Source: an uncultured Acetobacteraceae bacterium (lineage in GTDB: Bacteria; Pseudomonadota; Alphaproteobacteria; Acetobacterales; Acetobacteraceae). Taken from it: DNA of 64,000 bases. Shown piece by piece: positions 11,017-47,409 of the stretch (positions are counted from its first letter, which is position 1; the number at the start of each line of letters is the position of its first letter). The position numbers and the translations under genes were made by a program. The notes under the pieces were generated by a model. That model was not told where the DNA came from, did not search any database, and saw only the letters and a program-made list of their open reading frames with translations. Location of the stretch: positions 27,488 through 91,487 of the forward strand of contig CAXTJP010000001.1 in assembly GCA_964244615.1 (NCBI GenBank), given 5' to 3'.

Positions 11017-12198
11017 TCAGAGTGCCGGCGCATAGACGGCTTGCGCGATGCCGGGGTGCGGGGCTGCGACCGTTTTTTTCAGCTCGAACACGGACATCGC
11101 GTCCATGACGAAATCCTTGAACTCCATTTCGAACCGCGCCTCGGAGAAGCGTCGCGCATTGTCGTGGCAGGCCTGCGCCGTGAAATCGGCTTGTCGGCGC
11201 AGGAAGATGCGGATCGCCCCGGCGACCGCGTCGGGCGTGGCGGTGTCGAAGAACAGGCCGGTCGGCGACGGCCCGTTCGCCACCACCGTCTCGCGCACCC
11301 CGCCGCGGCCCAGGGCGATGACCGGGGTTCCGGCCGCCTGCGCTTCCACCGCAATGATGCCGAAATCCTCCTCTGCGGCGAACACGAAAGCCCGCGCCCG
11401 CTGCATCAGGTCGCGCAGGCGCGCATCCTCCACGAAACCGAGCAGTTCCACGTTCGGACCGGCCAGCTTGCGCAACCGCGGCAGTTCGGGGCCGTCACCC
11501 ACCACCACCAATCGCCGGTCGGGCAGGTCGCGGAACGCCTCGACGATGACGCGCGCGTTCTTGTAGGGAACGAGGCGCGAGGCCGTCAGGAAGAAATCTT
11601 CCCTGGCCACGTTCGGCAGGCACGGCGGCACCCGAACCGGCGGGTGGATCACGGCGGCGGCGCGCCCGTAGAGTTTCTGCACGCGACGGCCGACAAAATG
11701 GGAGTTGACGACGTAACGGTCGACACCGGCCGCCGTGCGGACGTCCCAGATACGCATGAAGTGCAGGATCGCCCGGGTGACCCAGCTGCCCACGCCGCGA
11801 CTCAACCGGCTTTCCTCCAGGTATTGCGCCTGGAGATCCCAGGCGTAGCGCATCGGCGAGTGCACGTAGCTGACGTGCAGCTGGTCCGGGCCGGTCAATA
11901 CGCCCTTGGCGACGGCATAGCTGCTGGAGATGACCAGGTCGTAGCCGCGCAGGTCGAACTGTTCGACGGCCAGGGGCATCAGCGGCAACCACATGCGGTG
12001 ATTGCGCCTGACGAGCGGGAATTTCTGCAGGAACGAGGTGTGGCTGTCGACGTAGCCGAGCTTGCGGCGGTCGTCCGGACCCAGCATGTCGAACAGCGAG
12101 AACAGCGTCGCGTCTGGAAAACAACGCAGGATGGACCGCAGCACGCGCTCGGCACCGCCGATCGTGTAAAGCCAGTCATGGACCACAGCAACGCGCAT
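11017..12198 (-). CDS. Glycosyltransferase family 4 (WbaZ-like)
   Basis: Motifs VVHDWLYTIGGAERVL, YVHSPMRYAWD, SRLVPYK and EDFGIIAVEAQAAGTPVIA. Confidence 0.92.
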   Translation of the reverse strand: MRVAVVHDWLYTIGGAERVLRSILRCFPDATLFSLFDMLGPDDRRKLGYVDSHTSFLQKFPLVRRNHRMWLPLMPLAVEQFDLRGYDLVISSSYAVAKGVLTGPDQLHVSYVHSPMRYAWDLQAQYLEESRLSRGVGSWVTRAILHFMRIWDVRTAAGVDRYVVNSHFVGRRVQKLYGRAAAVIHPPVRVPPCLPNVAREDFFLTASRLVPYKNARVIVEAFRDLPDRRLVVVGDGPELPRLRKLAGPNVELLGFVEDARLRDLMQRARAFVFAAEEDFGIIAVEAQAAGTPVIALGRGGVRETVVANGPSPTGLFFDTATPDAVAGAIRIFLRRQADFTAQACHDNARRFSEARFEMEFKDFVMDAMSVFELKKTVAAPHPGIAQAVYAPAL

Positions 12199-29400: not shown

Positions 29401-31461
29401 TCAGACATCCTTGGCCAATCGCAGCGCATCAAAGACGGCGGCGTGGATGTTGCGGCTGGACACCGCGTCGCCGATGCGGAACAGCTGGTAGCGCGCCTGA
29501 ACGTTGCGCACCACGGTCTGGGCGCGGCCGGCGAGCAGGGCCGCGTGGTCCACCTCGCCGCCGTTGCGCGAGCCGGGCTTCAGCGCTTCGTACAGCTCGT
29601 CGAGCGGCAACGTGCCGTGCTCGATCACCACCTGATCGACACACCGCTCCTCCGTCTGCGTCCCGTAATCGCTGCCCAGCACGGCCACCAGCGCGTTGCC
29701 GTGTCGGCGCACCGAATGCAGCCGGGTGTTGACCGTCACCCGCACGCCGCAGCGATGAAAGATGCGGGCGTAGGCGGCGTGGTTCAGGCCGCCGATCTCC
29801 GGTGCCAGCATGCGCTCGGGCGTCACGAGTTCCACCGAGGCGCCGGCTTCGGCCAGCATCTCGGCCGCCTGCATGCCGGGATGCGCCCCGTTGTCGTCGT
29901 AGACCAGCACCCGGCCCGACAATGCGGCAGCGCCACCCAGCACGTCCCAGCTCGAGACGACGAGGTCGCGGCCGTCCTGCAGCACCGCCGTGTCCGGCAC
30001 ACCGCCGGTGGCGACGAACACGGTGTCCGGGGCCAGCGCCAGCACGTCTTCGGCACCCGCATAGGTGTCGAAGCGGATCGTGGCACCCATCCGCGCCAGC
30101 TCGGACAGCCGCCAGTCCACGATGCCGATCAGTTCGCGGCGGCGCGGCGCGCGGGCCGCCAGCAGGATCTGCCCGCCGGCACGCGCGGTCGCTTCCAGCA
30201 CCGTCACCCGGTGCCCGCGCTCGGCGGACACGCGTGCCGCTTCCAGCCCGGCGGGACCGGCGCCCACCACCACCACGTGGCGCGTCGGGCCGTCGGCGCG
30301 CGGGATCACGTGCGGCATGCTGGCTTCCCGCCCGGTCGCGGCGTTGTGCACGCATAGCGCCTCGTTACCCTCGTAGATGCGGTCCAGGCAGTAGGTGGCC
30401 CCGACGCAGGGGCGTATGCGGTCTTCCTGGCCCGACAGGACCTTGCGCACGATGTGCGGCTCGGCGATGTGCGCGCGGGTCATGCCGACCATGTCGAGCT
30501 TGCCCTCGGCGATCGCGTGCCGGGCGGTCGCCACGTCGTTGATGCGGGCGGCGTGGAAGGTGGGAAAGCCGGTCGCCGCGCGCACTTCGCCGGCGAAGTC
30601 CAGGTGCTGCGCCGTGCCCATGCCGTGGATCGGGATGACGTGCGAGAGCGCGTTGTCGGTGTCCATGTGCCCGCGGATGATGTTGAGGAAGTCCACCACG
30701 CCGCCACCGGCGAAGCGGCGGGCGATCTCCACCCCGTCCGTGCGGCTCAGGCCGCTCTCCCAGTCCTCGTCGGCAACCATGCGCACGCCGATCAGGAAAT
30801 CGGGCCCCACCGCGTCGCGCATCGCCTGCAGCACGCGCACGGAGAAGCGCATGCGGTTCTCCAGCGTGCCGTTGTACTCGTCGTCGCGGTGGTTGGTGGC
30901 GGGCGACCAGAACTGGTCCGGCAGGTGGCCGTAGGCGTCGATCTCGAACCCGTCGAGCCCTGCCGCCTGCATGCGCTGTGCCGCCGCCGCGTAGTCGGCG
31001 ACGATACGGTCGAGGTCCCAGCGCTCCGCCGCCTTGGGGAAACCGCGATGCGCCGCCTCCCGCACGCGCGAGGGGGCCAGCACCGGCAGCCAGTCCGCCT
31101 TGTTCCACGCGGTACGGCGGCCGAGATGGGTGAGCTGGATCATCACCGCCGAGCCGTGCTCGTGGCACTCGTCGGACAGGCGGCGCAGCCAGGGCACGAT
31201 CTCGTCACTATAGGCGAGCAGATTGCCGAACACCGGCGGGCTGTCCGGCGAGACCACGGCGGACCCCGCCGTCATCGTCAGGGCGATGCCGCCGCGCGCT
31301 TTCTCGACATGGTAGAGCCGGTAGCGGTCCTTCGGCATGCCGTCTTCGGAGTAGGACGGCTCGTGCGCGGTGCTCATCACACGGTTGCGCAGCGTCAGGT
31401 GCCGCAACTGGTACGGCTGCATCAAGGGATCGCGGCTGATCGGCGTGGCGCTCGCGTGCAT
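29401..31461 (-). CDS. stcD: NADH:flavin oxidoreductase, StcD/HpbA-like (probable N-methylproline demethylase)
   Basis: N-terminus DPLMQPYQLRHLTLRNRVMSTAHEPSYSEDGMPKDRY, RPCVGATYCLDRIY, VVGAGPAGLEAA and C-terminus IGDAVSSRNIHAAVFDALRLAKD closely match the rhizobial stachydrine-utilisation flavoenzyme as I recall it. Confidence 0.8.
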   Translation of the reverse strand: MHASATPISRDPLMQPYQLRHLTLRNRVMSTAHEPSYSEDGMPKDRYRLYHVEKARGGIALTMTAGSAVVSPDSPPVFGNLLAYSDEIVPWLRRLSDECHEHGSAVMIQLTHLGRRTAWNKADWLPVLAPSRVREAAHRGFPKAAERWDLDRIVADYAAAAQRMQAAGLDGFEIDAYGHLPDQFWSPATNHRDDEYNGTLENRMRFSVRVLQAMRDAVGPDFLIGVRMVADEDWESGLSRTDGVEIARRFAGGGVVDFLNIIRGHMDTDNALSHVIPIHGMGTAQHLDFAGEVRAATGFPTFHAARINDVATARHAIAEGKLDMVGMTRAHIAEPHIVRKVLSGQEDRIRPCVGATYCLDRIYEGNEALCVHNAATGREASMPHVIPRADGPTRHVVVVGAGPAGLEAARVSAERGHRVTVLEATARAGGQILLAARAPRRRELIGIVDWRLSELARMGATIRFDTYAGAEDVLALAPDTVFVATGGVPDTAVLQDGRDLVVSSWDVLGGAAALSGRVLVYDDNGAHPGMQAAEMLAEAGASVELVTPERMLAPEIGGLNHAAYARIFHRCGVRVTVNTRLHSVRRHGNALVAVLGSDYGTQTEERCVDQVVIEHGTLPLDELYEALKPGSRNGGEVDHAALLAGRAQTVVRNVQARYQLFRIGDAVSSRNIHAAVFDALRLAKDV

Positions 31462-31481: not shown

Positions 31482-33071
31482 CTAACGGTCGATAGTCAGG
31501 TCGCTGGTCGGGCGGGCGCAGCACAGCAGCGCGAAGCCCTCGTCGATCTCGCTTTGCAGGATGCCGCCGTCATGGCGCATCTCGACCGTGCCGGACAGGA
31601 TGCGGCTCTTGCAAGTGCCGCAGACGCCCTTGCCGCAGGCGTAGGGCAGCCGCACGCCGGCGGCGCGGGCGGCCTCCAGCACGGTCGTGTCGCTGGGGCA
31701 GGTCACGTCGCGATCGCGGCGGGCGAAGCGAATGGCGAACACACCCGAGGCGATCCGGTCGTGAACCGGCGCGGCAGGCGCGTCACGCCGCGGCGCCGGC
31801 CCGGCGGGCGCTGCGGGTTCGCGGCGAAGCTGCAGCCCGGCACTCATGCGTTCCCCGTACCACCGGCAGAAATCGTCCACCAACCCCTCGGTGTACGGCG
31901 AGTAGGGGCCGGGCTCGTAGGCCGGGCTCACGACCCCTTGCTGGGTGATCTCCACCAGGTGGGCGTCCTGTCGGTTGGTCGCCTGCCAGACGGCCACCAG
32001 GTTGTCCGGGTCGTAATCCACGCCCTCCACCGCGTCCCTGTGCACCAGCCAGGTGGTGCGCAGCAGCGTGCGGCCGGGCTCCAGCGGCAGGACGCAGAAA
32101 GTGACCGCGTGGTCGGCCATCACGTGGTGCCAGGAGTTCGGCTGGGTCCAGAAGGTGAGCCCGCCCAGCCGCGTGTCCTTGAGGCCGCCCAGCAGCACCC
32201 GGCAGGCGCTCCTGGTGTCGCTCGTCTGGCTCTCCCCTGTCTGGTCCAGCGGCAGGCGCTCGGTCCGGTAACCGGTCGGGCGTCCGGTCAGCCGCTCGAT
32301 CCGGCGCGACGGCAGGCCGGAGGCCTCCCACCGCCCATGCATCTCCTGCACCAGCGTGTCGTAGCGCGCGGCCTGGTCCCGTTCGGCCTGGTTCAGCGAC
32401 GAGGGCGCGAAGCCGAAGCCGTAGGCGAAGAGCGGGACGGTCAGCTCCGGGTGGTTCGCCGCGCAGTGGTAGCACTCGCGGTTGTTCTCCATCGTGAGCT
32501 TCCAGTTGCCGCGCTCCACCAGATCCACCTGCCGCGCCACCTTCGCGTGACGCAGCCCGTGCGGCAGCAGGTACGGTTCCATCTCCGCCGCCATCGCCTC
32601 GATGTCGTCGGGCGGGTCCGCCGCCAGGCACACGAACAGCAGGCCGGCGACGGCGCGCAGCGCCACCGGGCGCAGCCCGCGGCAGGACGGATCGAAACCG
32701 TCGCCCATGTGGTCGGCGAACAGCAGCGCGCCGTCCAGGCCGTAGGTCCAGCTGTGGTAGCGGCACACCAGGTTGCCCACCCGGCCGGCGCCGTCCGCCA
32801 CGAGCTGCGCGCCGCGATGGCGGCAGACGTTGTGGAAGGCGCGCACCTCGCCCGAGCGGTCCCGCAGGATCAGGATCGGCGCGCGGCCGATGCGGATCGC
32901 CATCAAATCGCCCGGCTCCGGCACGTCGGGTTCCTGCCCGACGAAGATCCAGTGGCGGCCGAAGATCAGATCCATGTCGGCCTGGAACACCGCGGCGTCG
33001 GTGTAGAACGCGGCGTCGAGGCTGTGGCCGGGCCGCCGGTCGGCCAGCAGGCGCGGGAGATGGTCGGACAC
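31482..33071 (-). CDS. Rieske oxygenase alpha subunit (GbcA/Stc2-like) fused to a C-terminal plant-type [2Fe-2S] ferredoxin domain
   Basis: Rieske motifs CRHRG and CRYHSW; mononuclear Fe ligands NRECYHCAANH and QD; Pro/Ala linker; ferredoxin motif CGKGVCGTC...LLCC; GTG start at 33071. Confidence 0.9.
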   Translation of the reverse strand: MSDHLPRLLADRRPGHSLDAAFYTDAAVFQADMDLIFGRHWIFVGQEPDVPEPGDLMAIRIGRAPILILRDRSGEVRAFHNVCRHRGAQLVADGAGRVGNLVCRYHSWTYGLDGALLFADHMGDGFDPSCRGLRPVALRAVAGLLFVCLAADPPDDIEAMAAEMEPYLLPHGLRHAKVARQVDLVERGNWKLTMENNRECYHCAANHPELTVPLFAYGFGFAPSSLNQAERDQAARYDTLVQEMHGRWEASGLPSRRIERLTGRPTGYRTERLPLDQTGESQTSDTRSACRVLLGGLKDTRLGGLTFWTQPNSWHHVMADHAVTFCVLPLEPGRTLLRTTWLVHRDAVEGVDYDPDNLVAVWQATNRQDAHLVEITQQGVVSPAYEPGPYSPYTEGLVDDFCRWYGERMSAGLQLRREPAAPAGPAPRRDAPAAPVHDRIASGVFAIRFARRDRDVTCPSDTTVLEAARAAGVRLPYACGKGVCGTCKSRILSGTVEMRHDGGILQSEIDEGFALLCCARPTSDLTIDR

Positions 33072-33259
33072 GGAGGCACCTTGGTGTTTGCGGCGCATCA
33101 TTGCCCGATGGCGGGCGTGCCGGCCAACGGAAACCGGCAGGTTCGGGTCGTTTTACGCCAACTTCGTGCTGCGTCGCGAAAACGGCCTCCCACGCCGCTT
33201 CAGGGTGGTGTTACGCTCCCCAGACGTCAACGAAGGGGCACGACCTGACCACGGCACCG

Positions 33260-34348
33260 ATGATCGCGATCGAGGGCGTGAGCTGCGTGTTCGGCGCGCG
33301 CGAGCGAGAGGCGCTGGCCATGATGCGCGCCGGCGAGAGCCGCGCCGCCATCCTGGAGCGCACCGGCGCGGTGGTGGCCCTTCGCGACGTGGCGCTGCGC
33401 GTGGACGAGGGCGAGCTTCTGGTCGTCATGGGCCTGTCCGGCAGCGGCAAGAGCACGCTGCTGCGCTGCCTGAACCGCCTGGTCACGCCGGCCTGCGGCA
33501 GCATACGCGTCGCCGGCCAGGATGTGATGGCGATGGGCGATCGCCAGCTCCGCGCGTTCCGGCGGCGCAGCTTCGGCATGGTGTTCCAGCATTTCGCCCT
33601 GCTGCCGCACCGCACCGTGCTGCAGAACGTGGAGTTCGGCCTGGAGGTCCAGGGGGTGGGCCGCGCCGCCCGCCGCCGCTCGGCCGAGCAGGCCCTGGCG
33701 CTGGTGGGCCTGGCCGGCTGGGAGGGCAAGTGGCCGAGCCAGCTCTCCGGCGGCATGAAGCAGCGCGCGGGCCTGGCCAGGGCGCTGGCCGCCGACGCCA
33801 GCGTGCTGCTGATGGACGAGGCGTTCAGCGCGCTCGACCCGCTGATCCGGCGCGAGATGCAGACCGAGCTGGTTGCCCTGCAGAGGCGCGTGCGCAAGAC
33901 GATCGTCTTCGTCAGCCACGACCTGGACGAGGCCGTGGCACTCGGCGGGCGCATCGCGCTGATGATGGACGGCGTCATCGTCCAGGACGGCACGGCGGAG
34001 GGCATCCTGACCGCGCCGAAAACCCCCTATGTCCGGCGGTTCCTCGAGCACATCGACGTGGCCGGCGTGCTTCGGGTGGGAACGCTCGCCGATCGCGCCC
34101 CGCCGCCGCCCGGGCCGCGCGCCGTGCTGCGCGCCGAGATGACGCTGCGCGAGGCGCTGCCGCTGCTGGCGGACGGACCCGACGGGCTACCGGTCCAGGA
34201 TGCGGCCGGGCGTCACGTCGGCGTGCTGTCGCGCACCGCGGCACTGTCCGCCCTGGCCGGGCGGCCGAACAAGGAGGAGCCTGCGTGGCCACCGCCATCC
34301 CCCGCTTCCCGCTCGACGATCTATGCGACCGCGCCCTCGATTGGCTGA
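33260..34348 (+). CDS. proV: Glycine betaine/proline-type ABC transporter ATP-binding subunit (ProV/OpuAA-like)
   Basis: Walker A GLSGSGKS, FQHFALLPH, LSGGMKQR, DEAFSALDP and a C-terminal CBS-like segment. Confidence 0.88.
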   Translation: MIAIEGVSCVFGAREREALAMMRAGESRAAILERTGAVVALRDVALRVDEGELLVVMGLSGSGKSTLLRCLNRLVTPACGSIRVAGQDVMAMGDRQLRAFRRRSFGMVFQHFALLPHRTVLQNVEFGLEVQGVGRAARRRSAEQALALVGLAGWEGKWPSQLSGGMKQRAGLARALAADASVLLMDEAFSALDPLIRREMQTELVALQRRVRKTIVFVSHDLDEAVALGGRIALMMDGVIVQDGTAEGILTAPKTPYVRRFLEHIDVAGVLRVGTLADRAPPPPGPRAVLRAEMTLREALPLLADGPDGLPVQDAAGRHVGVLSRTAALSALAGRPNKEEPAWPPPSPASRSTIYATAPSIG

Positions 34349-35127
34349 CCGCGAACGGCGCCGGGACCACGCGTGTCCTGAGCCACGTCGTGTCTGCCTG
34401 GGTGGGCGGGCTGACCGGGGCGCTGCAGGCAGTGCCGCCGCTGCTGTTCGTCGGTGTGGCGGGCCTGCTGGCCTGGCGCGCGGCGGGCTGGCGGCTGGGG
34501 TTGCTGACGCTGGCCGGGCTGCTGTTCCTGTGGAATCTCGGCCTGTGGACGCCGATGATCGCGACGCTGGTGCTGGTGACGGTCTCGACGCTCGCCGCCG
34601 TGCTGATCGGGCTGCCGCTCGGCATCGCCGCCGCGCTGAGCCGGCGCACCTGGCGCCTGGTGTCGCCCTGCCTGGACGTGATGCAGACGATGCCGAGCTT
34701 CGTCTACCTGATCCCGGCCATCCCGTTCTTCGGCCTGGGCGCGGTTTCGGCCTGTTTCGCCACCATCATCTTCGCCGCACCGCCCACGATTCGGCTGACC
34801 GCGCTGGGCATCCTGCAGGTGCCGCACGAGCTGAGCGAGGCCGCCGACGCGTTCGGGTGCACGCCCTGGCAGAAGCTGCTGAAGGTGCAGTTGCCGCAGG
34901 CGCTGCCCACCATCATGGCGGGGATCAACCAGACGATCATGCTGGCCCTGTCGATGGTGGTGATCGCCGCGATGATCGGCGCCGGCGGGCTTGGCCGGGA
35001 GGTCTGGAGCGCCATCCAGCGGCTGCAGGCCGGGCGCGGCTTCCAGGCGGGCATCGCCATTGCCATACTGGCGGTGATCTTGGATCGGGTGACGAATGCG
35101 CTGTCGCGACGGTTGCGGACGGCTTGA
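34285..35127 (+). CDS. proW: Glycine betaine/proline-type ABC transporter permease (ProW-like)
   Basis: Motifs LDVMQTMPSFVYLIP, EAADAFG and GINQTIMLALSMVVIAAMIGAGGLG; AAGGAGG RBS before GTG 34285. Confidence 0.9.
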   Translation: MATAIPRFPLDDLCDRALDWLTANGAGTTRVLSHVVSAWVGGLTGALQAVPPLLFVGVAGLLAWRAAGWRLGLLTLAGLLFLWNLGLWTPMIATLVLVTVSTLAAVLIGLPLGIAAALSRRTWRLVSPCLDVMQTMPSFVYLIPAIPFFGLGAVSACFATIIFAAPPTIRLTALGILQVPHELSEAADAFGCTPWQKLLKVQLPQALPTIMAGINQTIMLALSMVVIAAMIGAGGLGREVWSAIQRLQAGRGFQAGIAIAILAVILDRVTNALSRRLRTA

Positions 35128-35268: not shown

Positions 35269-36108
35269 ATGAACCGCAGAGACCTGCTCATCGGCGCCGC
35301 AGCCCTTGCCGCCTCGCCCGCCCGCGCCGCCGGCAAGACGCCGGTGCGGATCGCCTATGTCGAATGGTCGGACGCGATCGTTTCCAGCAACATCCTGGCC
35401 GCCGTGCTGCAGGACATGGGGCACGAGGTCACGCTGCTTCCGGTCTCGGGTGCGGCGATGTGGCAGGCCGTGGCGTCGGGCGATGCCGACTGCATGCTGG
35501 CAGGCTGGCTGCCGACGACCCATGCCGCCTACTACGCGAAGCTGCGAGACCAGGTGGACCTGATCGGCCCCAACTTCACCGGTGCCCGGATCGGCTGGGC
35601 GACGCCGGACTACGCGCCGCTGAACGCGATCCCCGACCTCAAGACCGAGGGCGAGCTGGTGGGCAACACCGTGATCGGGATCGACGCCGGTGCGGGGATG
35701 ATGCGCGCGTCCGAACATGCGATCGAGGTGTACGGGCTCAGCAGCATCACGCTGGTCGATGGCAGCGAGGCGACCATGGTCGGTGCGCTGAAGGAGGCCA
35801 TCGCCCGCAAGCAGGCCGTCGTTGTGACCATCTGGACGCCGCACTGGATGTTTGCGGCCTGCAAGCTAAAGTTCCTTGCCGATCCGAAGGGATGTTTCGG
35901 TGGGGCCGAGACGGTGAACACGGTCGCGCGCCTCGGCCTGAAGGCCGACATGCCGGACGTCCACGCCGTGCTCAGCCGCTTTCGGCTGTCCGCGGCCGAC
36001 GAGCAGGCGGTGATGATGCAGAACCAGGCGCGCGGCGCCGACCCCGCGAAAACCGCCGCCGCCTGGGTTGCGGCCAACGCCACGCTGGTCAGGTCCTGGC
36101 GTAGCTGA
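35269..36108 (+). CDS. Glycine betaine-type ABC substrate-binding protein (OpuAC/ProX-like)
   Basis: Tat-like signal MNRRDLLIGAAALAASPARA; motifs YVEWSD, GWLPTTH, IGIDAGAG and WTPHWMF. Confidence 0.9.
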   Translation: MNRRDLLIGAAALAASPARAAGKTPVRIAYVEWSDAIVSSNILAAVLQDMGHEVTLLPVSGAAMWQAVASGDADCMLAGWLPTTHAAYYAKLRDQVDLIGPNFTGARIGWATPDYAPLNAIPDLKTEGELVGNTVIGIDAGAGMMRASEHAIEVYGLSSITLVDGSEATMVGALKEAIARKQAVVVTIWTPHWMFAACKLKFLADPKGCFGGAETVNTVARLGLKADMPDVHAVLSRFRLSAADEQAVMMQNQARGADPAKTAAAWVAANATLVRSWRS

Positions 36109-36124
36109 GCGGGGTGCCGGGCCG

Positions 36125-37288
36125 ATGATCTTCGACGTCATCGTGGTGGGCGGCGGCGGCATGGGCAGCGCCGCCGCGTGGCAACTGGCCAGACGCGGCC
36201 AGCGCGTGCTGGTGCTGGAACGTTACGACGTGCCGCACGCGCACGGCTCCTCGCACGGCATCAGCCGCATCATCCGCCTGCCCTATTACGAGAACCCCGC
36301 CTACGTCCCCCTGCTGCACCGGGCCTACGCGCTTTGGCGAGAGGCGGAGGCGGCGAGCGGCTGCGAGCTGCTGGTCACCACCGGGTCGGTCGATGCCAGC
36401 CCGGAATGGGATCCGCTGTTCCAGGGCGCGCTCGCCTCGGCCCGGCTGCACGGTCTGCGGCACGAGGTGCTGACCGGTGCCGAGGTCAACGCCCGTTTTC
36501 CCGGCTACCGGCTGCCGGAGCGCCACCGCGCGGTGTTCCAGCCCGATGGCGGCCTGATCGCGAGCGAGCGCGCCGTGGTGGCTCACATCGCCCTCGCCCA
36601 GGCGAACGCCGCCGTGGTCCGGGCGCGCGAGAAGGTGCTGGGCTGGGAGGCGGCCGGCGGCGGCGAAGGGGTGACCGTGACCACGAGCCGCGGCCGCTAC
36701 CAGGCCGGCCGGCTAGTGCTGACAGCCGGCGCCTGGATGGGCGAGCTGGTTCCCCTGCTGGCCGGGCGGGCGGTTGCCGAACGCCAGGTGCTGGCCTGGC
36801 TGCAGCCGCACGAGCCCGCGCTGTTCAGCCCCGGCCGGTTCCCGGTGTTCAACCTTCAGGTGGAGGAAGGCCGCTACTACGGCCTGCCGATCTACGAGGT
36901 GCCGGGCTTCAAGTTCGGCCGCTACCACCACCAGGGGGAGAGCGGCCACCCGGAGGCGCTGCTGCGCGAGCCGGACGACGCCGACGAGCGCCTGCTGCGC
37001 GCCTTTGGCGAGCGCTACTTCCCGGCGGGGTCGGGACCCGTGATGGCGCTGCGTGCCTGCCTGTTCACCAACACGCCCGACGAGCACTTCATCCTCGACC
37101 ACCATCCGCATTACGGGCAGGTCGTGCTCGCCTCGCCGTGCAGCGGCCACGGCTACAAGTTCTGCAGCGTGGTCGGAGAGATCCTGGCGGACCTCGCCAC
37201 TGGAGACGGCACCACCCGGCACGACATCGGTTTCCTGCGTCTGAACCGTCCCAGCCTGGCCGAACACCCGGCGCTCGGCGTTGCGTAG
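36125..37288 (+). CDS. solA: Monomeric sarcosine oxidase / N-methyltryptophan oxidase family flavoenzyme
   Basis: Motifs VVGGGGMGSA, HAHGSSHGISRIIR, CLFTNTPDEHF and SPCSGHGYKF. Confidence 0.85.
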   Translation: MIFDVIVVGGGGMGSAAAWQLARRGQRVLVLERYDVPHAHGSSHGISRIIRLPYYENPAYVPLLHRAYALWREAEAASGCELLVTTGSVDASPEWDPLFQGALASARLHGLRHEVLTGAEVNARFPGYRLPERHRAVFQPDGGLIASERAVVAHIALAQANAAVVRAREKVLGWEAAGGGEGVTVTTSRGRYQAGRLVLTAGAWMGELVPLLAGRAVAERQVLAWLQPHEPALFSPGRFPVFNLQVEEGRYYGLPIYEVPGFKFGRYHHQGESGHPEALLREPDDADERLLRAFGERYFPAGSGPVMALRACLFTNTPDEHFILDHHPHYGQVVLASPCSGHGYKFCSVVGEILADLATGDGTTRHDIGFLRLNRPSLAEHPALGVA

Positions 37289-39299
37289 CGCGGACACGCA
37301 GGACGCGGCCGAGAGACCATCTCCGATAGAGGCGGAGGTGCTGCGCATACGATCGCTGCTGCAGCTTGGCGACCATCGTCAGGCGCTGCAGGCCGGGTTC
37401 GCCCTGTGCGCCCGCGTGCCAGAAAACCGTGACGTGCTCTACATGATCGCCGTCGCGCAGCGGTACCTGCGGCTTCATGCCGACGCGCTGCAGACGCTGG
37501 CACGGCTGCAGGCAGCGCATCCCGCCTACAGCCGTCTCTACCAGGAGCGCGGCCATTGTTTCGCCGCCGCCGGCGATCCCGCCGCGGCCCTCGCGGCGTA
37601 TCTCGACGCGGTGAACCTCAACGCGGCGCTGCCGGCGAGCTGGCAGGCGCTGGCCGTGTTGTTCCGCGCCGCGGGCCGGACCGAAGAGGCGGGCATGGCG
37701 GCGGGCCACGTGGCCAAGCTCCGCCAGCTGCAGCCTGCGGTCGTGACGGCATCCAGCCTGTTTGCCGACGGCGAGGTGAACGAGGCCGAGCGGGTGATAC
37801 GGCAGTTCCTGCGCGAGCACCCACGCGACGTGGAGGGCATGCGGTTGCTCGCACGCATCGGCATGAAGCTCGACGGGCTGGAGGATGCCGAGTTCCTGCT
37901 GGAGAGCGTGCTGGCTTTCTCGCCCGGCTACCATCTCGCGCGCTACGACTACGTGCGCGTCCTGCTGCAACGCCATCGCAACGCCAAGGCATTGGAAGAA
38001 GCCAGGGTGCTGCTGCAGGCGGAGCCGGCCAACCGGGACTACCGTGCGGTTTACGCGACCGCCTGCCTGGCGCTGTCCGATTACGACGAGGCGATCCGCA
38101 CCTATCGCCAGCTTCTGGAAGAAGCACCGGCGGCGGCAGACCTGCATCTGTCGATCGGCCACGCCCTCAAGACGCTCGGGCGCCAGCAGGACGCGATCGC
38201 ATCCTATCGCGCGGCCGCTGCCGTCAAGCCCGGGTTCGGCGACGCCTACTGGAGCCTCGCGAACCTGAAGACCTACCGGTTCACCGACGACGAGATCGCC
38301 CGCATGCGGCAACAGGAGGCCGATCCGGCGGCGTCGGCGGTCGACCGCGCTCACCTGTGTTTCGCGCTGGGCAAGGCGCTGGAGGATCGCGCCTCCTACG
38401 CCGAGTCGTTCGGCTACTACGAGCGCGGCAACGCGCTGAAAAGGACCGAGACGCAGTACCGCCCGGACGCGATCGAGGGGAGCGCCCGACAGCAGGTGGC
38501 GCTGTTCACGCCGGCGTTCTTCGCCGCCCGTCCGGATTGGGGCTGCCCCAGCAACGAGCCGATCTTCGTGGTGGGGTTGCCGCGCGCGGGATCGACGCTG
38601 ATCGAACAGATCCTCGCCTCGCACTCGCAGGTCGAGGGCACGATGGAACTGGCCGACATCCCGCGCCTGGTGCTGCGCCTGCAGGGGCGCGCGCACGACG
38701 AGACCGCGCCCGCCTACCCGGCGGCGCTCGCCGACCTGTCTGCGGCGCAACTGCGCCGGCTGGGCGAAAGCTACCTGGCCGACACGCGCGTCTATCGCAC
38801 CGGCCGCGCGTTCTTCATCGACAAGAACCCGAACAATTTCCGCCATCTCGGGCTGATCCACCTCATGTTGCCGAACGCGCGCATCATCGACGCGCGGCGC
38901 GACCCGATGGCGTGCTGTTTCAGCAACTTCAAGCAGCTCTTCGCCTTCGGTCAGGAATTCACCTACGATCTGCGCGACATCGCCCGCTACTACCGCTCCT
39001 ACGTGGCGCTGATGGCGCATTGGGAGGCGGTGATGCCGCGGCACATCCTGCGCGTGCAGCACGAGGACGTGGTTGCGGACCTGGAGGGCAGCGTGCGACG
39101 CCTGCTCGATTTCTGCGGCCTGGCTTACGAGCCGGGCTGCGTCCTGTTCCACAGGACCGAGCGCAGCGTGCGCACCGCGAGCTCCGAACAGGTGCGTCGG
39201 CCCATCAACGCGGATGGGCTGTCGCAATGGACGCATTTCAGGCCCTGGCTCGGTGTGCTTGAGGATGCGCTGAAAGGCAGGGAAGGCCTTCTTTTTTGA
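37281..39299 (+). CDS. Tetratricopeptide-repeat protein with C-terminal sulfotransferase domain
   Basis: Several TPR-like helical repeats; PAPS-binding motif FVVGLPRAGSTLIEQIL, FIDKNP, RRDPMACCFS and VRTASSEQVR; the last 8 residues come from repeat copy C. Confidence 0.9.
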   Translation: MRSADTQDAAERPSPIEAEVLRIRSLLQLGDHRQALQAGFALCARVPENRDVLYMIAVAQRYLRLHADALQTLARLQAAHPAYSRLYQERGHCFAAAGDPAAALAAYLDAVNLNAALPASWQALAVLFRAAGRTEEAGMAAGHVAKLRQLQPAVVTASSLFADGEVNEAERVIRQFLREHPRDVEGMRLLARIGMKLDGLEDAEFLLESVLAFSPGYHLARYDYVRVLLQRHRNAKALEEARVLLQAEPANRDYRAVYATACLALSDYDEAIRTYRQLLEEAPAAADLHLSIGHALKTLGRQQDAIASYRAAAAVKPGFGDAYWSLANLKTYRFTDDEIARMRQQEADPAASAVDRAHLCFALGKALEDRASYAESFGYYERGNALKRTETQYRPDAIEGSARQQVALFTPAFFAARPDWGCPSNEPIFVVGLPRAGSTLIEQILASHSQVEGTMELADIPRLVLRLQGRAHDETAPAYPAALADLSAAQLRRLGESYLADTRVYRTGRAFFIDKNPNNFRHLGLIHLMLPNARIIDARRDPMACCFSNFKQLFAFGQEFTYDLRDIARYYRSYVALMAHWEAVMPRHILRVQHEDVVADLEGSVRRLLDFCGLAYEPGCVLFHRTERSVRTASSEQVRRPINADGLSQWTHFRPWLGVLEDALKGREGLLF

Positions 39300-46200: not shown

Positions 46201-47409
46201 ATGTCGGAGTTCAGCCGGGTCAGAGCATCGCTGCAATCCCGCCTGCCCGGCCATGCGCTGCCGCAGGCGCTCTACGCCACCGAGGAAGCCTACGAATTCG
46301 ACCTGCGCGCGATCTTCGGGCGCGCTTGGGTGCTGGCCGGCCTGGAATCGGAGCTGCCCGCGCCCGGCTCGGCGCTGGCGCTCACCATCGGCACCTCGCC
46401 CATCGTGGTGCTGCGCGACAAGGCGGGCACGATACGCGGCTTCCACAATTCCTGCCGGCACCGCGGCGCGATGGTCTGCCCGCCCGGCCGCAGCCAGCGG
46501 CCGGTGCTGGTCTGCCCATACCACCAGTGGAGCTACGACCTGACTGGCCGCCTCGTGAGTGCCCGGCGCATGCAGGACGATTTCGACAAGGCCACCCATG
46601 GCCTGCGGCCGATCGAGGTGCGCAACGTCGCCGGCTGCCTGTATGTGAGCCTGTCGGAGGATCCGCCGCCCTTCGACGCGTTCAGCGCCGGCCTGGCCCC
46701 CCTGCTGGCGCCGCACGATCTGGCGAACGCGAAACTGGCGCACGAGGCGGTGTTCATCGAGCGCGCGAACTGGAAGCTGGTGATGGAGAACGCGCGCGAG
46801 TGCTACCACTGCGCGGTGCGCCACCCGGACCTGTCGATCGCCTTCCCGACCGAGGTGCGCGCCCATTTCGAGGGCGACGAGGAGGGCCGCGTAGAGCGTT
46901 TCAACGCCCGCATGGAACGCGCCGGCCTGCCGGTCGGACCCTCCCTGGGCGACTGGTGGGGTGCCGTCCGCTTCCCGCTCAACGACGGCGTGGTGTCGCT
47001 CACCATGGACGGCAAGCACGCCGTCTCCCGCCTGATGATCGAGCAGGAGGCGGGCGATGTCGGATCGGTGCGCTGGGCCGGCGAGCCGAACAGTTTCTGC
47101 CACGCGGTGGCCGACCACGTGTTCGTCTTCACCGCCGAGCCGACCGGGCCGCAGGAGACGCTGGTGACCGCCAAGTGGTTCGTCCACAAGGACGCCGTCG
47201 AGGGCACGGACTACCATCTGGAGAACCTGGTGGCGCTGTGGATGACGACCAACCAGCAGGACATAGAGCTGGTGGAGAACAACCAGCGCGGCGTGAACTC
47301 GATGGGCTACCTGCCGGGGCCATACTCGGAGGAGGCGGAAGCGCTGGTCGGCCGCTTCACGAACTGGTACTGCGCGCAGGCCGAACAGGCGTTGGAGCGG
47401 ATGGACTGA
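46201..47409 (+). CDS. Rieske oxygenase alpha subunit (GbcA/Stc2/CntA-like quaternary amine oxygenase family)
   Basis: Motifs CRHRG, CPYHQW, ENARECYHCAVRH and QQDIELVE; GGAGG RBS before ATG 46201. Confidence 0.92.
   Translation: MSEFSRVRASLQSRLPGHALPQALYATEEAYEFDLRAIFGRAWVLAGLESELPAPGSALALTIGTSPIVVLRDKAGTIRGFHNSCRHRGAMVCPPGRSQRPVLVCPYHQWSYDLTGRLVSARRMQDDFDKATHGLRPIEVRNVAGCLYVSLSEDPPPFDAFSAGLAPLLAPHDLANAKLAHEAVFIERANWKLVMENARECYHCAVRHPDLSIAFPTEVRAHFEGDEEGRVERFNARMERAGLPVGPSLGDWWGAVRFPLNDGVVSLTMDGKHAVSRLMIEQEAGDVGSVRWAGEPNSFCHAVADHVFVFTAEPTGPQETLVTAKWFVHKDAVEGTDYHLENLVALWMTTNQQDIELVENNQRGVNSMGYLPGPYSEEAEALVGRFTNWYCAQAEQALERMD

Follow-up and report, generated by a model that had tools for sequence, protein, structure and literature searches.

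The window analysed here is a stretch of 64,000 nucleotides from an uncultured Acetobacteraceae bacterium (GenBank assembly GCA_964244615.1, contig CAXTJP010000001.1, positions 27,488 to 91,487). It contains a gene in which a Rieske oxygenase of the GbcA/Stc2 family is joined, through a linker, to a plant-type [2Fe-2S] ferredoxin domain (Fer2). The assembly, G000, comprises 3.07 Mb in 180 contigs and is 92% complete; the window lies on its contig C1. As listed in Table 1, the fused gene is accompanied by genes for a DgcA/StcD-like flavoprotein, a betaine-type ATP-binding cassette (ABC) importer and a sarcosine-type oxidase. The ATG of the DgcA-like gene is located 20 nt past the stop codon of the fused gene, with an AGGAG sequence 6 nt upstream of it. 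No beta-subunit gene was found in the locus around the fused gene.

Table 1. The fused gene, its domains and the neighbouring genes of the betaine locus (positions are those of the window; residues are in 529-aa numbering).
Feature	Position	Strand	Evidence
Fused gene: GbcA/Stc2-family Rieske monooxygenase + linker + Fer2, 529 aa	31482..33071	-	Translation, homologue alignment, Pfam
Rieske [2Fe-2S] domain, residues 40-116; ligands C83, H85, C103, H106	32724..32954	-	PF00355, 64 bits
Non-haem iron catalytic domain, residues 176-410	31842..32546	-	PF00848, 123 bits
Disordered Pro/Ala-rich tether, residues 418-441	31749..31820	-	pLDDT <50; aligns to GbcB linker
Plant-type [2Fe-2S] ferredoxin domain, residues 444-529; ligands C479, C484, C487, C517	31485..31742	-	PF00111, 59.8 bits
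DgcA/StcD-like FMN flavoprotein, 686 aa, co-oriented downstream	29401..31461	-	Pfam Oxidored_FMN + Pyr_redox_2
ProV/ChoV-like ABC ATPase, betaine-type importer, divergent	33101..34348; true start probably near 33260	+	ABC_tran; NCBIfam choline/betaine ABC ATPase models
ABC permease	34300..35127, start provisional	+	BPD_transp_1 in C-terminal part of frame 33088-35127
OpuAC-type glycine-betaine-family substrate-binding protein	35269..36108	+	PF04069, 228.6 bits
Monomeric sarcosine/N-methyl-amino-acid oxidase (SolA/MSOX-like)	36068..37288	+	Pfam DAO; NCBIfam N-methyl-L-tryptophan oxidase

The fused gene corresponds to the called gene P0002 and encodes a single protein. The minus-strand frame 31482-33101 translates without a stop codon. 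We took the GTG at 33071 as the start because homologues begin at MSD or MTD (13 fused homologues were aligned); an AAGGTG ribosome-binding site precedes it, and the stop is the TAG at 31482-31484. The G+C content at third codon positions (GC3) was 0.93. Pfam placed the Rieske domain at residues 50-126, Ring_hydroxyl_A at 186-420 and Fer2 at 462-532 (539-aa numbering), all far over the cut-offs, and found neither FAD_binding_6 nor NAD_binding_1 in the 529-aa protein. Among the NCBIfam models, the GbcA oxygenase subunit model NF058607 ranked first with 433.5 bits over model positions 15-417, and the last 88 residues matched positions 274-361 of the GbcB reductase model NF058606 with 77.7 bits. 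Translation, Pfam and NCBIfam agree with an earlier note on this DNA, which had read one open frame as a GbcA/Stc2-like oxygenase, a Pro/Ala linker and a GbcB-like ferredoxin domain, and the gene limits set here are precisely those given in that note.

The catalytic domain carries the motif NNRECYHCxxNHPE (E199, C200, H202, C203 and H207) together with D320, all of them invariant. E199-C200-x-x-C203 is the group V motif, and H202, H207 and D320 are the proposed iron ligands (529-aa numbering). The Rieske ligands, the E-C-x-x-C motif and the iron-site residues were conserved without exception in 53 fused and unfused relatives, and so were all metal ligands, including the four Fer2 cysteines (CX4CX2C...C), in 13 fused proteins. 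This E-C-x-x-C motif is typical of quaternary-amine (group V) Rieske enzymes, and the role of its CxxC and Glu residues has been addressed (PMC10952381). In the AlphaFold model (mean predicted local distance difference test score, pLDDT, 84.9) the poorly predicted tether lies between two well-folded parts. It is about 25-30 residues long and Pro/Ala-rich, and both its length and its sequence vary among homologues.

The closest solved structures are those of Stc2 from Sinorhizobium meliloti (PDB 3VCA, 4QUP-4QUR) and TM1040_3219 (3N0Q), with E values of 1e-103 to 1e-105. Stc2 (3vca/4qur) was also the best fold match, with template modelling (TM) scores of 0.86-0.89, followed by CntA; the identity in the fold search was about 41-42%. 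The window protein shares with Stc2 the Rieske ligands and the E-C-x-x-C motif, but Stc2 has no C-terminal ferredoxin domain, and the context of the window locus favours glycine betaine over proline betaine. Like GbcA/GbcB of Pseudomonas and the equivalent BmoA/BmoB of Chromohalobacter salexigens, the window protein has an oxygenase of this family, and its Fer2 is a homologue of the C-terminal part of GbcB. The two also have their locus partners in common, namely a GbdR-like regulator, a DgcA-like protein, a sarcosine oxidase and a betaine ABC importer. It differs from that pair in having no FAD/NAD module, in carrying Fer2 on the oxygenase and in scoring under the curated equivalog cut-off of the GbcA model, which is 670 bits. 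By all sequence and fold criteria tried, the fused protein is a member of the group V Rieske monooxygenases (GbcA/BmoA, Stc2, CntA). It is neither a certified GbcA equivalog, nor a GbcB reductase, two of whose three domains are absent, nor a self-sufficient enzyme.

A search covering 5.8 billion proteins found the combination of Rieske, Ring_hydroxyl_A and Fer2 in 33 clusters among the best 120 matches, at 54-82% identity. The fused clusters come from NCBI, ENA, JGI and Logan assemblies. One fused gene is located on a 2.2-Mb contig (locus L009), and another in G007, a 4.5-Mb genome of the same family that is assembled as one contig. Among sampled genomes, 2 of 101 from the family had the fused form; a further 400 from the class, with three candidates scored per genome, had none. 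It was also found in one of the 80 best loci of a species-representative collection, which belongs to a Steroidobacteraceae metagenome-assembled genome (MAG). The best named relatives of the fused protein are from Acetobacteraceae. The fused architecture is real and rare, and it is not unique to this assembly. In full-text searches of the literature, no paper describing a natural fusion of a Rieske oxygenase with a ferredoxin came to light. The earlier note had allowed that the fusion might be unique to one assembly or, conversely, common and already characterised; its presence in 33 clusters from independent assemblies contradicts the former, and as to the latter, the form proved rare, with no paper on it found.

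The canonical, unfused relatives are about 75% identical and show the gene order gbcA-gbcB-(gbdR)-dgcA-like (loci L028, L113 and L114). In these, gbcA (415 aa) overlaps gbcB by 4 nt, and gbcB encodes about 350 aa, with Fer2 at the C-terminal end after FAD_binding_6 and NAD_binding_1. A GbdR-like regulator gene and an OYE-FMN/Pyr_redox_2 (DgcA/StcD-like) gene often follow gbcB, and L113 also has a divergent OpuA-type ABC importer in the same arrangement as the window. When the fused protein was globally aligned with the concatenated GbcA and GbcB of L028, the GbcA part matched right up to its final residues. Next came a gap of about 255 residues, spanning the FAD and NAD modules, after which the alignment picked up again in the Pro/Ala-rich interdomain linker of GbcB and continued through Fer2. 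The G007 fusion likewise aligns to the GbcB interdomain linker, and L009, which is fused and 82% identical, matches L028 in gene order except that the FNR module is missing. A third state is seen in L012, where a stand-alone 94-aa Fer2 gene (11426-11710) is inserted between a gene for a 429-aa oxygenase, 75% identical to that of the window, and the DgcA-like gene; here the FNR module is gone, yet there is no fusion.

The Fer2 of the fused protein is 55-75% identical to the C-termini of the GbcB proteins of relatives. Identity to the window Fer2 declines in step with oxygenase identity, whether the domain is fused, part of GbcB or stand-alone, and because of this an origin in place fits better than capture of a foreign ferredoxin. 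The capture of an unrelated plant-type ferredoxin was rejected, since the best match of Fer2 is GbcB and its divergence follows that of the oxygenase. Judged from these alignments, the fused protein is all of GbcA followed by the GbcB interdomain linker and Fer2, with the FAD/NAD module deleted. Its tether derives from the C-terminal tail of GbcA joined to the interdomain linker of GbcB.

The loss of the FNR module happened repeatedly. In a tree restricted to the oxygenase parts, 6-8 changes are required to account for the fused state, and well-supported branches force at least 3 of them. Two unfused calls inside the clade of the window, P0017 and P0019, lie on contigs of 2.4-2.7 kb; they were deemed likely truncated and were omitted from a second tree. 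A single fused clade was rejected by the approximately unbiased (AU) test (delta lnL 112, p = 0.0006), and we rejected one ancestral fusion on the basis of the tree and this test. The ratio of nonsynonymous to synonymous substitution rates (dN/dS, Nei-Gojobori) between the window and L009 was 0.09 for the oxygenase, 0.10 for Fer2 and 0.43 for the linker. The corresponding values between loci L010 and L024 were 0.07, 0.12 and 0.66. Only these two pairs are informative, because dS is high in more distant pairs. Fer2 is held by purifying selection about as strong as that on the oxygenase, and the tether drifts.

No reductase gene is present in the window, as the earlier note had stated. In G000, matches to NAD_binding_1 (FNR-type) were limited to a 257-aa Fpr-like gene on contig C13 and a CysJ-like gene on C2, with none on C1. 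The same note had called for a search of the genome for gbcB-like genes. In this assembly, which is 92% complete, the search yielded no GbcB-type reductase: the GbcB model matched only the fused Fer2 and, weakly, the Fpr-like gene. None was found in the Steroidobacteraceae MAG (G498) either, and there was no FNR-type gene within 10 kb of the 9 fused loci inspected. We found no recurring extra gene near the FNR-less loci that could be a reductase. One-off flavoproteins near fused loci were a cyclic-nucleotide (cNMP)-binding Pyr_redox_2 protein in L027 and a Pyr_redox_dim flavoprotein in L009, the latter present also in the canonical locus L113.

The window contains a second GbcA-family Rieske gene (46228-47409, +; 43% identical). 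It belongs to a LysR-controlled operon and is flanked by the LysR gene and a gene for a Cys/Met-metabolism pyridoxal phosphate (PLP) enzyme. The earlier note was right that no reductase adjoins this gene either. Because neither a reductase nor a ferredoxin gene is located beside it, this oxygenase would also need a donor acting in trans.

The neighbouring genes point to a betaine as substrate. The DgcA-like gene is 85-90% identical across canonical and fused loci, and the nearest solved structures of its product are 2,4-dienoyl-CoA reductase and the histamine and trimethylamine dehydrogenases; this enzyme is probably responsible for the second demethylation step. The SolA/MSOX-like protein scored 454 bits against a cut-off of 257 with the NCBIfam N-methyl-L-tryptophan oxidase model, and such a gene also adjoins the fused gene in L009; it probably catalyses the third step. 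Other fused members adjoin soxBDAG and genes for dimethylglycine dehydrogenase (DMGDH), a GbdR-like regulator and serine dehydratase. A context of soxBDAG, DMGDH and serine dehydratase represents the textbook route from glycine betaine through glycine to serine. On the strength of the locus context of the window and of the other fused members, the fused enzyme is most likely an N-demethylase of glycine betaine or a closely related betaine. Directly downstream of the betaine locus is a gene for a 672-aa protein with tetratricopeptide repeats (TPR) and a sulfotransferase domain (37281-39299, +), and a similar 665-aa TPR-sulfotransferase gene is located near the fused homologue of L026 (15274-17271), an unrelated metagenome contig.

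The observed architecture, origin, conservation and recurrence are best explained, with a probability of roughly 0.6, by a working group V N-demethylase that arose by deletion within gbcAB and whose tethered ferredoxin is served in trans by a shared reductase. The deletion would have cut the FAD/NAD module out of GbcB and joined the GbcB linker and Fer2 in frame to the end of GbcA, turning a two-component system into an oxygenase-ferredoxin fusion that depends on a shared reductase. The product would act as the first enzyme of a local betaine uptake and demethylation locus, made up of the importer, the fused oxygenase, the DgcA/StcD-like flavoprotein and the monomeric sarcosine-type oxidase, and would convert glycine betaine into dimethylglycine and formaldehyde.

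Loss of the flavin module means that another protein must reduce the ferredoxin domain in trans. We infer, as a somewhat better than even proposition, that a non-dedicated NAD(P)H:ferredoxin reductase reduces the tethered ferredoxin, which then reduces the Rieske centre. The domain, on its flexible tether of about 25-30 residues, would hand electrons one at a time to the Rieske cluster of the alpha3 oxygenase, from where they would move to the mononuclear iron. The closest parallel in design lies outside the Rieske enzymes. In MCCYP51FX of Methylococcus capsulatus, a sterol 14-alpha-demethylase P450 is followed by an Ala-rich linker and a ferredoxin. P450-ferredoxin fusions of this kind resemble the window protein in the C-terminal ferredoxin, in the Ala/Pro-rich tether and in still needing a separate reductase; they involve another oxygenase superfamily and another type of ferredoxin cluster, and there is no evolutionary kinship. 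In the caffeine N-demethylase system NdmA/NdmB-NdmD, a plant-type ferredoxin domain docks at the subunit boundary of the alpha3 trimer and supplies electrons there (PMC12445004). NdmD keeps its ferredoxin domain on the flavin reductase, whereas the window protein carries it on the oxygenase and has lost the flavin part. By analogy with the NdmD domain on NdmA, the tethered Fer2 would probably dock at the subunit boundary.

Generic ferredoxin reductases are the likeliest donors, and G000 encodes three candidates. The first is the Fpr-type protein of contig 13. The second is a glutathione-reductase-type ferredoxin reductase (FdR) on contig 152 (C152), encoded in a cluster (L117 2497-4360) with a major facilitator superfamily (MFS) transporter, an amidohydrolase, a Rieske ferredoxin and a [2Fe-2S] ferredoxin; no oxygenase gene was found in this cluster before the contig end. 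The third, on contig 22 (C22; L109 205-1755), is a single protein in which a Rieske domain is fused to a Pyr_redox_2/Reductase_C reductase. They are candidates for the role that a separate NAD(P)H:ferredoxin reductase plays in Rieske systems of the three-component type (reductase, [2Fe-2S] ferredoxin and oxygenase). None of the three is linked to the fused locus.

Several points weigh against this reading. A GbcB-type reductase could sit in the missing part of G000, since the genome is 92% complete and in 180 contigs. The one complete genome that bears a fused gene, G007, has an unlinked GbcB-family reductase (G007:C1:2053737-2054870; L110 7732-9420, -, within a 562-aa open frame), which scored 348 bits against 340-369 for genuine partners. 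As to the substrate, the 433 bits of the fused protein do not reach the GbcA equivalog cut-off, so glycine betaine is not certain, and stachydrine or another betaine is possible. The Paracoccus enzyme HpbC2B2 acts on both stachydrine and glycine betaine with relaxed specificity (bioRxiv 10.1101/2023.12.12.567942).

The strongest rival holds that a GbcB-type reductase elsewhere, in the unassembled 8% or unlinked as in G007, serves the oxygenase, and that the fused Fer2 is redundant or auxiliary. The partner-like score of the G007 reductase, the incompleteness of G000 and the second GbcA-like gene of the window, which likewise has no partner, all speak for it. However, a redundant domain should decay, and Fer2 is constrained like the oxygenase, with its four cysteines invariant down to about 56% identity. 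The searches of G000 and G498 yielded no GbcB, and the reductase gene of G007 stands in an unrelated context, between a fragment of an IS240-family transposase and a 1089-aa open reading frame without a family match, with a DAHL-domain two-component system adjoining. We consider this explanation unlikely, though it is the best placed of the alternatives.

Loss of the flavin module might also have been an adaptive re-wiring to another electron source and not a neutral loss. The source would be either electrons derived from the substrate by the next dehydrogenase (DgcA/StcD-like or DMGDH with electron-transfer flavoprotein, ETF) or the NADPH/Fpr pool. We regard this as unlikely. If it were true, the O2-dependent first demethylation would be independent of a dedicated NADH reductase, and the repeated origin would point to a design principle that selection can favour in Rieske oxygenases.

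In a specific form of electron recycling, the DgcA/StcD-like protein would oxidise dimethylglycine or N-methylproline and hand the two electrons to the tethered ferredoxin and thence to the Rieske centre, so that the first demethylation would need no NAD(P)H. The 20-nt spacing of the two genes in one operon suits this scheme. So does the DgcA-like neighbour seen in the window, in L009, G007 and L025, and in L012 with its stand-alone Fer2. The product of this gene is a member of the trimethylamine/histamine dehydrogenase family, whose solved members oxidise their substrates and pass the electrons to external acceptors. With its single canonical GxGxxG motif, the protein is unlikely to work as a reductase driven by NAD(P)H. 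But a gene that is 85-90% identical, with identical motifs, follows the intact gbcA-gbcB pairs of L028, L113 and L114, and at least 4 fused lineages have no DgcA-like gene within 10 kb (L010/L024, L026, L027 and L030), with DMGDH/soxBDAG instead. The DgcA/StcD-like flavoproteins of the window, L009, L012, L025, L113 and L114 all carry CVGATYCLDRIYEGNEALC. The motif CVGATYC...C offers only three cysteines, compared with the four [4Fe-4S] ligands of the 2,4-dienoyl-CoA reductase FadH (CIGCNQAC...C), and no DgcB-like gene was found adjacent to the DgcA/StcD-like genes. Because loci with an intact GbcB have the same gene, finding it next door is no evidence of electron feeding; the adjacency reflects the pathway, in which this enzyme takes the next step, and not the loss of the FNR module. 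On these grounds the StcD/DgcA-like protein was rejected as a specifically supported donor, and we hold the recycling scheme to be improbable. The earlier note had proposed, as one option, a new architecture fed by another flavoprotein such as the StcD-like enzyme: the architecture proved to be real, with no paper found describing it, and the StcD-like donor gained no specific support.

The fused gene as an inactive deletion scar or a decaying gene is very improbable. The canonical electron entry point was indeed lost with the flavin module, but the frame is intact, with a GC3 of 0.93, a ribosome-binding site, all ligands kept and dN/dS of about 0.1, and the architecture arose repeatedly and persists in lineages down to 54% identity. 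Deletion of the FNR domains as the origin, which the earlier note had offered as its other option, is borne out by the canonical gbcA-gbcB loci and the roughly 255 missing residues; inactivity is contradicted by the 33 clusters, the retained ligands and the Fer2 dN/dS of about 0.10. Although the genome is in 180 contigs, an assembly or gene-calling artefact of the MAG has a negligible chance, given the same fusion in assemblies of four sources, a one-contig genome and a 2.2-Mb contig.

Full single chains of GbcA and GbcB also exist. About 30 clusters encode five-domain proteins of 770-873 aa with Rieske, catalytic, FAD_binding_6, NAD_binding_1 and Fer2 domains (L116 6134-8755, which is P0280; P0125; P0126; P0275-P0300; P0267). 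In P0267 the domain order is reversed, with the reductase first. An 873-aa protein of this type is listed in NCBI nr under the name 'SRPBCC family protein [Cocleimonas flava]', and on a contig of an independent Logan assembly it translates as one uninterrupted frame; another comes from a Granulosicoccaceae MAG. These chains belong to the same oxygenase family and have Fer2 last; the two that were scored against the window protein are 41-45% identical to it. They retain, between oxygenase and Fer2, the FAD_binding_6 and NAD_binding_1 domains that the window protein lacks, and would for this reason be self-sufficient. If active, they would be natural self-sufficient Rieske oxygenases. A 2025 perspective stated that no natural self-sufficient Rieske oxygenase had been identified and named artificial redox-partner fusions as an engineering goal (PMC12445004).

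Rieske oxygenases are in demand as biocatalysts; the chief practical obstacle to their use is an electron supply spread over several components. The family contains both an oxygenase-ferredoxin fusion and a full oxygenase-reductase-ferredoxin chain, and it offers natural linkers and domain orders to engineers. The fused form is an uncharacterised variant of a known two-component system and not a new kind of system. As far as gene content can tell, a dedicated reductase may be dispensable for betaine demethylation in some bacteria, and annotations or metabolic models that demand gbcB for glycine betaine catabolism would overlook organisms with the fused gene.

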